From: Octopus vulgaris
Lineage: Eukaryota
Direction: 5' to 3'
DNA length: 64,000 nucleotides
NCBI GenBank assembly: GCA_951406725.2
Contig: OX597830.1
Coordinates: 74,710,001-74,774,000 of the forward strand
Below the pieces are notes generated by a model. The model had not been told where the DNA came from. It saw only the letters and a program-made list of their open reading frames with translations, and ran no database searches. The position numbers and the translations under genes are program-made. Position 1 is the stretch's first letter, and each line of letters starts with the position of its first letter. This document shows, in pieces, positions 7,028-53,908 of this stretch.

Positions 7028-7239
7028 CTATAACTGCTGTCCATAGATTTATTGGTATTTGCCAAGGTTTACTGAATTGTTTTTTAAAAAAGGTAATTTA
7101 TATTCAAAATCTGTAACAAAGAGGATAATAATAATATTTTAAAGCTTAAACCTTATAAGCTATCACCGTTTTTTGACTGAAGAAAATAATCTAGTATTAA
7201 AACATATAGGCCCTCGACGGAAAAAAATAGTGGATTTAC

Positions 7240-7310
7240 CGTAAGCATAGGATTCGAACCTACACCTCTTATATTCACGAAAAGCGTGCTAACCATTACA
7301 CCAACGTATA
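7240..7310 (-). pseudogene. tRNA-like sequence (pseudogene or orphan SINE head)
   Basis: Minus strand has D-arm GTGT-AATGGTTA-GCAC, anticodon arm ctttt-CGTGAAT-ataag and T-arm GTAGG-TTCGAAT-CCTAT. The acceptor stem does not pair and U33 is missing. Confidence 0.7.
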
Positions 7311-8501
7311 TATCAATTATCGCAGAGGTGGTAATATGTTCAACCAGCTGCCAAACACGCTTGAGTCAGGTTAAGTAGAATGTAAAATGCTTTTGCTAAT
7401 TGTTTAATTATTTTTTTTTGTCTGTGTATAGTGTGGGTCACGGATGATCATTCCACTACCCCCACTTCCCTTTGATAACTGAACATCTAGATTGTAACAG
7501 CTGAAGTGAAAGAGCTCTACACCAACGGCTCAGTTGGTGCCCCTTCTCAGGTGAGTCAACTAGGGCAAACAAACGTGAATTACAGTTACTTGTTTAAGGT
7601 CTCAACGCGCCACCCAGTCAGGAATCGGATCAACGAATATGTTGCACCGAAACCATAGCCAACAGATTACGCACCTGCGCAATAATGACGATGATAATGA
7701 AGACGGTGATTGCCGTGGTGGTGTTGTTGGTGGTGTTGTTGTTGGTGGTGTTGTTGGCGGTGGTGGTGACGACGACGATGCATGTGATGATGATGATAAT
7801 GATAGTAATAACTATAATAGCGCAACGTTAATAATAGTTTTATCTTTATATTATTAAAAAGGCAATAATGATAATTCATTGTAATGATTTATTTTATTGT
7901 CACAAGGATGACAACAGATGGGGTCCATTACATGTTATGATTATGATGATGATGATAATAGTGATGGTGGTGGTGATGGTGGTGTTAGTAGTAGTAGTAG
8001 TAGTCGTGTTGGTAGTAGTAATTGTAGTAGTAAGTAGAAAATGTTTGTCACAATGAAACTATTTGTTTTACAAAGAGAGAGAATCCAATCCATTGTTTCG
8101 ATGTTGTTTAATAAAGCGGGTTAGGGAAGACGTTAGTTGAATAACTGCTAGGTCAATCACCAAATAACCAGATAAAACCCTGGAATAATGACCAAGAATA
8201 ATAGCGAAAAACTGTGATAGTAACAGCTAATGCATGTCTACCTACGAAGACCTCCCACAACTCCAAATTACAATCAAAATTGCCAAAAAGGTTTTATATG
8301 TGCAAACATATATATTGCTTTCAAATTTTGACACAAAGCCAGCAATTTCATGCTGTGACTGTATGGTAAGACGTTTGTGCCCCAAACACATTGGTCAGTA
8401 GTCATCTGCGACAGCTTGGTCTGAACGTAACCTTTTGATTGTATTCAGTAGAAGGAAATTAAACGATACTTAGCGTGTATACATACGTCCATACCTACCT
8501 A

Positions 8502-8775
8502 CATCATTTACATTTACAATTGACGGATATTCGTCCTCATCTTGTTTGTTTTTAACACAACGTTTCGGCTGATATACCCTCCAGACTTCATCACGTGTCT
8601 TGGGAACATTTCGAACCTGGATTCTCATTCCGAAGTTATTTTTCGATGTTGTTGTTGTTGTTGTTGTTATTATCATTATTATTATTATTATTATTATTCA
8701 CGTCACTGCCTGGAATCGAACTCGGAATCTTGGGGTTAGTAGCCCGCGCTCTTGACCACTACTCCATTGTCTGTT
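8502..8775 (-). mobile_element. tRNA-headed short retroposon with (AAT)n linker and hammerhead-bearing 3' module (core C3 mutated)
   Basis: A-box TGGAGTAGTGG (8766-8756), anticodon-like loop CTACTAA, B-box GAGTTCGATTCC (8723-8712), (AAT/AAC)n, then gacac-GTGATGA-agtctgg...cagcc-GAAA-CGTT-gtgtt. Confidence 0.8.
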
Positions 8776-8798
8776 GTGACGTGAATAATAATAATAAC

Positions 8799-8854
<56 letters not shown>

Positions 8855-9064
8855 CAAGAACAACAACAATAATAATAACAACAACAACAACAGCATCGAA
8901 AAATACCTTAGGAATGAGAACCCATGTTCGAAATTTCCCCAAGACATCTGATGAAGGCTGAAGCGTATCTCAGCCGAAACGTTGTGTTAACAACAAACAA
9001 GATGACAAATATCCGTCGAATGTAAATAATGTACATAATTCCTCATGTCTTAAATATAGAACTG
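8776..9064 (+). mobile_element. Inverted, head-less second copy of the same element
   Basis: Starts GTGACGTGAATAAT (reverse complement of 8693-8706). 8894-9030 is a diverged reverse complement of 8510-8648. Confidence 0.88.
8943..8988 (+). ncRNA. Minimal type I hammerhead ribozyme motif (Penelope-like)
   Basis: Stem I GACAT/GTGTT. Core CTGATGA 8948-8954 plus an extra A. Stem II GGCTG (8956-8960)/CAGCC (8971-8975). GAAA 8976-8979. Helix III reduced to the palindrome ACGT. Predicted cleavage after GUU. Confidence 0.72.
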
Positions 9065-9304
9065 TTATACCTACATACATACATACATACTTACATACAT
9101 ACATGCATACATACATACCTACATACATACAAACACACATACGCAAACAGACATTCACTCATGAACACACATTCTCTCTCTCTCTCTCTTTCTCTCTCTG
9201 TCATTCTCTGTCTCTCTTTCTCTCTTTCTCTCTTTCTCTCTCACACACTCACTCACACATCTATGTATATGTTCTTTTGTTATTTAAATTCGTCTTCCCG
9301 CGAC

Positions 9305-53804: not shown

Positions 53805-53826
53805 ATACTTGCTTTAGTATAAATAA

Positions 53827-53858
<32 letters not shown>

Positions 53859-53908
53859 GGCCCCTGCACAAGGATGCGACGCGAATTCAAGAAGCGTTAC
53901 TTATTTTT
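53805..53908 (+). pseudogene. U6: U6 snRNA pseudogene, near full length
   Basis: TAAAATTGGAACGATACAGAGAAGATTAGCATGGCCCCTGCaCAAGGATG matches U6 (ACAGAGA 53842-53848, AGC 53854-53856) and ends GAAGCGTT...TATTTTT. The 5' stem-loop and 3' region carry several mutations, and the upstream DNA is (CA)n. Confidence 0.93.

Follow-up and report, generated by a model that had tools for sequence, protein, structure and literature searches.

A tRNA-derived head in the terminal repeat of an octopus Penelope-type element, seen through a head-to-head hairpin insertion

Anatomy of the hairpin locus

The window analysed in this work is a 64,000-nucleotide stretch of the Octopus vulgaris genome, which is 2.8 Gb in size and rich in microsatellites. 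Positions 8502..9064 of the window are occupied by two arms of one repeat, arranged head to head, with the following features:

8489..8500: probable decayed 12-bp target-site duplication, left copy, in a (TACA)n microsatellite (9/12 identical to 9065-9076)
8501..8648, minus: arm 1 module, i.e., the 5' end of an ORF with a hammerhead; it stops at the shorter 3' end, without tail
8554..8599, minus: arm 1 minimal type I hammerhead; C3 is replaced by G (8594), and stem II has one mismatch
8649..8698, minus: arm 1 pLTR linker, (AAT)n/(AAC)n, which ORF-linked copies carry too
8699..8774, minus: tRNA-derived head, about -2 to +76, with the anticodon-like ACT at 8740-8738; register exact in 94 copies
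8712..8721, minus: B box, read in the sequence
8756..8766, minus: A box, with one substitution in the locus copy (C11 to A)
8775: head-to-head junction of the two arms
8776..8783, plus: arm 2 head remnant, the last 8 nt of the head (5'-truncated)
8784..8893, plus: arm 2 linker, (AAT)n/(AAC)n
8894..9064, plus: arm 2 module, i.e., the end of the 5' UTR and the first ~50 codons of a Penelope ORF (ATG at 8914)
8943..8988, plus: arm 2 minimal type I hammerhead, core intact, extra A after A9, palindromic ACGT helix III
9040..9064, plus: Penelope "tail", the ~25 nt between alternative 3' ends, on arm 2 only
9065..9076: probable target-site duplication, right copy (9/12 vs 8489-8500)

The inverted arrangement described in an earlier note on this DNA was recovered (162 nt at 86% identity ungapped; modules 86% over ~137 nt), and the minus-strand head with its A and B boxes, linker and module was located where it had been claimed (head 8774-8699). 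The letter at head position 73 is common to both arms of the locus and is present in 0 of 94 sampled heads. As the target-site duplication is flanked by microsatellite on both sides, it is regarded as tentative. The plus-strand hammerhead also agrees with the earlier description (intact core, ACGT palindrome, GUU), with a predicted cut after GUU, at 8983|8984, while in the minus copy the change of C3 to G was confirmed and an additional stem II mismatch, missed previously, was found. In the anole Poseidon hammerhead C3G kills cleavage (PMC11167929), and the hammerhead of arm 1, given this change and the stem II mismatch, is predicted to be inactive. The ORF copy carries a premature stop at 8959 (arm 2, plus strand), and the locus is a dead copy.

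Exact 15-mer searches returned 10,469 genomic occurrences for the hammerhead (reversed control, 0) and 6,159 for the head (reversed control, 1). The repeats are thus not due to chance, and from these exact-match counts the family is estimated at tens of thousands of copies. For a position-based sample, the first 95 of 100 listed matches on one contig (C1) gave 94 distinct heads, of which three near-identical duplicates were removed, leaving 91 copies. A module in the same orientation lies downstream in 80 of these 91, which bears out the proposed linkage of head and module; an inverted piece lies upstream of the head in 60, and the sample comprises 77 short copies but 14 with a linked ORF.

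Numbered from its first G, the head shows T8, an anticodon-like ACT at 34-36 and T54-T55-C56-G57-A58, and when the commonest letter of the 94 copies is taken at each position, both the A and the B box are canonical. Compared with genomic tRNAs (35 distinct calls of 10 tRNA types), it reached 44-47 identities in 74 positions (z up to 7.7 vs shuffles). No single parent tRNA could be assigned, since Arg, Thr and Cys scored alike. The acceptor stem does not pair; ARAGORN did not call the locus head at default settings and called 13 of the 94 heads when relaxed, and Rfam gave no tRNA match at E<=10 at the locus or in the intact copy L046. The exact register across 94 copies supports the tRNA-derived A/B-box head that had been read from a single locus, and the head is likely to act as the promoter. 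Elsewhere in the window, ARAGORN called a tRNA-Ser(TGA) at 7239-7310 (minus), followed by eight T's and by BLAST unrelated to the element head; among the 150 of 575 matches listed from the Rfam scan of the 64-kb window there was a full-length U6 snRNA match with several substitutions (53805-53908, plus; 101.9 bits).

The hammerhead of the family has the conserved core, an extra nucleotide after A9, G10.1-C11.1 and a palindromic helix III, and it fits the min-HHR description in PMC4209133, so that its earlier assignment to the Penelope-type minimal class holds. Across copies, core positions decay like their flanks (39/959 changes vs 600/12720 in the rest of the module), as is to be expected of dead copies, and position 7 is the sole common non-CpG core polymorphism (21/100). 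Covariation within the family is not informative, as the copies decay neutrally, and Rfam matched no hammerhead at E<=10 at the locus or in copy L046. Cleavage by the ribozyme is predicted to require either dimers or the assistance of a protein. In addition, 13 loci (within L285-L313) carry minimal hammerheads of another, heterogeneous class, whose cores measure 28-29 nt and whose upstream flanks are T-rich; this class shows no motif similarity to the Penelope family, A and B boxes together occur in 0 of 13 within 400 nt upstream, and its stem II sequences vary and are often still paired.

The parent element and its short copies

A coding sequence was found upstream of the head in three of the 30 best module loci. 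A search with this coding sequence yielded 30 loci, where the head follows the ORF end in 29 of 29 besides the query's own, and the module also follows in 28 of 30. The head lies 30 nt past the ORF stop, upstream of the next ORF start. In the parent element an RT lies upstream (Pfam RVT_1, E=1.4e-10 and 1.2e-9, over the cut-off), followed at the C-terminus by a GIY-YIG-like domain that contains an internal CxC and lacks the CX2-5CxxC linker, read by eye in the translations according to the two-cysteine, no-linker criterion in PMC8557442; Pfam GIY-YIG gave no match in the parent translations. The module precedes the ORF in five of the 30 loci (L107, L112, L116, L122 and L123), in which it continues into the ORF, and one locus (L245) has the order module-ORF-head-module, i.e., a pLTR from a partial tandem with the hammerhead. 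The module is coding (ATG and about 50 codons), with the hammerhead within the first ORF codons.

The commonest codons of the parent ORF contain 0 stops at 800 positions, and their translation is 72% identical to an 806-aa relative (P0134). By eye, the final module codons match this relative in its N-terminal region; pairwise comparison of the first 15 module codons with it gave no match, and therefore only the last ones are conserved there. Relatives of the encoded protein (P0001-P0170) stand at 60-72% protein identity. A metagenome scan with one of them (P0001) for the pLTRs of relatives found nothing, and no splice-like RNA joint indicative of a pLTR intron was present among the joints listed. 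The predicted N-terminus of another protein of the set (P0141) resembles an antisense hammerhead, hinting that the same inverted-arm structure is present in another genome.

The unit consists of module, RT, GIY-YIG-like domain, stop, 30-nt spacer, head, (AAT)n and module. The RT, the GIY-YIG-like domain, the head at the ORF end and the 5' module make it a Penelope/Poseidon-type unit with the head inside the pLTR; head, (AAT)n linker and hammerhead module are the pLTR of an autonomous element of the same genome. Every feature of Penelope-like elements that could be tested was found, and the element is assigned to them on these features. The earlier note had asked whether the module flanks RT and GIY-YIG ORFs and had proposed mobilisation by a Penelope RT. 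In the parent unit the module stands on either side of the RT and the GIY-YIG-like domain, and the mobilisation is supported.

Its other proposal, a separate non-autonomous SINE/retrozyme hybrid, is not supported, as head and module lie in the autonomous unit and the short copies have neither private mutations nor a divergence of their own. Between 76 short and 43 ORF-linked copies, 0 of 249 columns show a difference that survives correction. Outside CpG sites the short copies have diverged by 4.7% (n=64) and the ORF-linked ones by 4.9% (n=38; p=0.73). Two linked sites define two subfamilies (p=2e-6), both of which occur in short and in ORF-linked copies. A tRNA-SINE is an independent lineage with masters of its own, and the 76 short copies set against the 43 ORF-linked ones form no such lineage; retrozymes are head-to-tail units with at least two hammerheads, and the locus is head-to-head.

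Internally deleted copies, to which small direct repeats are confined, were characterised at tail-to-ORF junctions. From 159 matches 90 were taken, and after 29 chance flanks had been dropped, 61 true junction copies remained (within L315-L404). Most of them end, on the 5' side, within the module, and few extend as far as the head; a head in the same orientation lies upstream in six of 61, plus one upon curation. Most are mini-units, in which module and 30-650 nt of ORF start are followed by a jump to a module (25/61) or to a head (9/61), and these look like products of RT template jumping. Two of them (L337 and L338) have one internal-deletion junction in common and different flanks, so that a mini-element may have replicated at least once; mini-units could seed true non-autonomous elements.

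Insertion signature and the 5' edge

Copies of the family have two 3' ends, near module positions 146 and 171, about 25 nt apart. In head-to-head pairs the longer end (the tail) is found on one arm only in 90 of 99 cases (P=3e-18). Target duplications of 7 bp or longer accompany 52 of the 99, compared with 1.5% when pairs are shuffled. Target duplications of the family span 7-12 bp, and the insertion flanks are 73% AT. The two arms of each pair thus derive from a single insertion event. Variants common to both arms (39/313, 12.5%, vs 4.2% for shuffled partners) suggest a common source locus or later conversion. An inverted 5'-truncated partner copy with a one-ended tail is typical of Penelope-like elements (PMC8557442), opposite-strand hammerhead pairs 100-700 bp apart have been reported (PMC4209133), and the palindrome is this known insertion signature. 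The hairpin at 8502..9064 is therefore one ordinary insertion of a self-encoding Penelope-type element.

In the anole Poseidon reaction in vitro (PMC11167929), both target strands are cut and extended, the tail is the stretch between two internal priming sites within the ORF, and insertion proceeds without hammerhead cleavage, which requires protein. The octopus hammerhead, too, is probably dispensable for insertion. Its cleavage was considered as the source of the 5' ends at module 91-100 (window 8984-8993; 16 ends vs 2 at 81-90). The excess is stronger in junction copies, 28/52 of which end in module 91-143 vs 23/118 (p=2e-5). This reading was weakened, as position 91 is not singled out genome-wide and an 8-bp palindrome at module 92-99 underlies the pile-up just after the predicted cut. 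A cleavage footprint is not claimed because many junctions reach 2-4 nt upstream of the cut.

Most 5' ends lie at the head. Of the at-risk copies, 74 of 88 end within +22..-14, which per base is roughly 14-fold the rate of the ORF, and 14 of 91 copies run beyond the head. The head 15-mer occurs 6,159 times, compared with 1,336 for one placed 66 nt upstream and 1,539 for one still deeper in the ORF. For 50 of 73 pile-up ends there is no partner arm that terminates in the 5' part of the head. Position -6 is retained by 97 heads when all loci are pooled, a set in which ORF-linked ones are over-represented; 47 continue into the parent spacer and 50 do not, and 48 of these 50 match the parent for at most one base more, which is a sharp 5' edge at G-6. 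ORF-to-head jumps join exactly at G-6 after at least one A in six of 10 cases, once after A12; these six stem from four independent events, a small number. G-6 lies 13 nt upstream of the A box, the typical start distance of type 2 Pol III promoters. TTTT does not occur in the 2.68-kb unit, where base composition predicts 4.8 (P=0.031 by synonymous shuffling). These are indirect signs that the RNA starts at the head, and we consider it rather probable that a Pol III start at -6 in the pLTR, combined with internal priming, produces SINE-like stubs and an ORF-bearing minority. On the other side, G4 runs are missing from the unit as well (3.1 expected), Rfam does not score the head, relaxed ARAGORN calls it in 13 of 94 copies, and few tail-to-ORF junction copies have a head upstream.

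With the same Penelope parent, the head could instead be a passive relic, e.g., an old tRNA-SINE in the UTR of an RNA made by Pol II read-through, with 5' ends accumulating by RT stalling or fold-back at the -21..+19 hairpin. The spacer at -21..-1 resembles the inverted 5' end of the head, forms the most stable of 124 50-nt windows and has a stem that ends at -7, and therefore stalling or fold-back could yield the same edge. Snap-backs account for 28 of the 50 non-parent -6 ends, so that the edge coincides with structure, and the module 91-100 pile-up is on a palindrome as well, indicating that palindromes attract junctions in this element. Three RNA-seq runs on L094:4467-5995, of unspecified strandedness and size selection and possibly from a related species, showed equal strand depth, no pile-up of starts at the head, and a head-to-ORF depth step of ~3-fold vs ~6-fold in the contig run; they speak neither for nor against a Pol III RNA that is short or confined to the gonad. 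However, the stop rate climbs toward -7 with no peak at the stem entry near +19, the remaining 22 ends stop at -6/-7 without snap-back (A-tailed jumps included), 0 of 10 copies stop at -135, where there is a hairpin about as stable, and both boxes are canonical when the commonest letters are read. We hold this alternative to be rather unlikely, but it is a serious rival.

A start at -6 from an internal Pol II promoter, with the A and B boxes incidental or mere factor-binding sites, would also explain the sharp edge and the A12 tract at one jump, and the ORF must be translated, which favours a capped RNA. An internal TATA-less promoter is present in Drosophila Penelope (PMC2377424). Such a start is nevertheless distinctly improbable in view of the canonical A box 13 nt downstream of it, the B box in exact tRNA register and the absence of T4. 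Least probable of all is an independent, self-cleaving Pol III SINE/retrozyme family with its own masters, served in trans by a Penelope RT: the excess of short copies, the deletion junction common to L337 and L338 and the Sm-alpha precedent speak for it, against the lack of private mutations, the equal age, the occurrence of both subfamilies in both classes and the place of the head in an autonomous unit.

The comparisons above show the parent, the insertion in one event and the lineage common to short and ORF-linked copies; the reading with a Pol III start and internal priming adds a promoter, a polymerase and a priming route that we infer. The element RNA would start at G-6, transcribed by Pol III; the RT-endonuclease would nick both target strands and prime two cDNAs internally, as in anole Poseidon in vitro, using one each of two sites that are separated by ~25 nt and lie shortly after the ORF start. 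Since priming is internal, every transcript would offer a priming site ~330 nt from its 5' end. From the 5'-proximal site the tail, module, linker and head would be copied, followed by run-off, giving ~330-nt stubs, whereas longer-than-unit RNA primed at the downstream repeat would give the ORF-bearing copies, which make up ~15%. The two cDNAs would then join head to head by microhomology or snap-back, and at the A-tailed G-6 jumps the RT may have passed off the 5' end of one RNA onto the 3' end of another. A tRNA-like promoter in the terminal repeat would in this way account for thousands of short copies that mimic SINEs. The anole Poseidon RNA needed ORF sequence past the priming site (PMC11167929), and because the stubs end at the priming sites they probably cannot template again.

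A stronger version, possible but with the chances somewhat against it, is that an autonomous Penelope element has switched to Pol III altogether, the captured tRNA head driving a 2.7-kb T4-free RNA from G-6. If so, internal priming on the same RNA would shed roughly five stubs for each ORF-bearing copy, and the element would show how a hammerhead-bearing repeat of SINE shape, Sm-alpha for instance, can come straight from a Penelope terminal repeat.

Relation to described elements

The closest described elements are Penelope of Drosophila virilis and Poseidon of Anolis carolinensis. According to PMC8557442, PMC11167929 and PMC4209133, they share with the octopus element a single ORF with RT and GIY-YIG-like domains, the pLTR, a minimal hammerhead over the ORF start, an inverted 5'-truncated partner, a one-end tail, two 3' ends and AT-rich targets. 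The octopus pLTR differs by its tRNA-derived A/B-box head and (AAT)n linker, and most octopus copies end at the head; the described Penelope promoter is LINE-like and internal (PMC2377424), unlike this head.

The earlier characterisation as an undescribed system was overstated, since hammerhead-bearing Pol III SINE-like elements are known in Schistosoma. Sm-alpha and Sj-alpha are short high-copy repeats in which a type I hammerhead stands downstream of a Pol III-type promoter (PMC6765202, PMC2770079). They are, however, non-coding, often tandem, SINE-like and equipped with a canonical hammerhead, whereas in octopus a minimal hammerhead lies in coding sequence and the head in an autonomous element. 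TRIMp3 elements (Cassandra, Helenus, Ajax) likewise carry a small-RNA-derived Pol III promoter within the terminal repeat, proposed to stem from SINE insertion; they are non-autonomous LTR elements of <1.3 kb with PBS and PPT, in contrast to the autonomous 2.7-kb Penelope unit (PMC10886601). Metazoan non-LTR retrozymes resemble the family in their type I hammerhead, short unit and proposed pLTR origin, but form tandem arrays with at least two hammerheads and circular RNA, while octopus copies are mostly dispersed or head-to-head (bioRxiv 10.64898/2026.07.22.740005; PMC7229834). A term search of the available text of that preprint gave 0 mentions of tRNA, promoter or Pol III.

The literature searched contained no description of an autonomous Penelope element whose pLTR has a tRNA head, although Repbase, Dfam or SINEBase may already curate the family, and 190 Penelope-like families have been catalogued without description of such a head in the available part of PMC13282606. 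Autonomous non-LTR retrotransposons are held to be Pol II-transcribed, Pol III promoters marking short non-autonomous elements (PMC10886601). This divide becomes less clear with a Penelope element whose pLTR includes a tRNA head, and such an element provides a concrete way in which the terminal repeats of Penelope can turn into SINE-like repeats with hammerheads. The element is SINE-like at its 5' end yet lacks the independent lineage of a SINE, and repeat annotation would likely label its stubs as SINEs. The family also preserves natural traces of how Penelope elements insert, a reaction that is poorly understood, comprising one tailed and one tail-less arm for each event, 7-12 bp duplications and jumps from RNA 5' ends onto A-tailed RNA ends. 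Finally, four near-identical pairs of insertions with common flanks (L139/L140, L156/L157, L136/L137 and L385/L400) are likely local segmental duplications.
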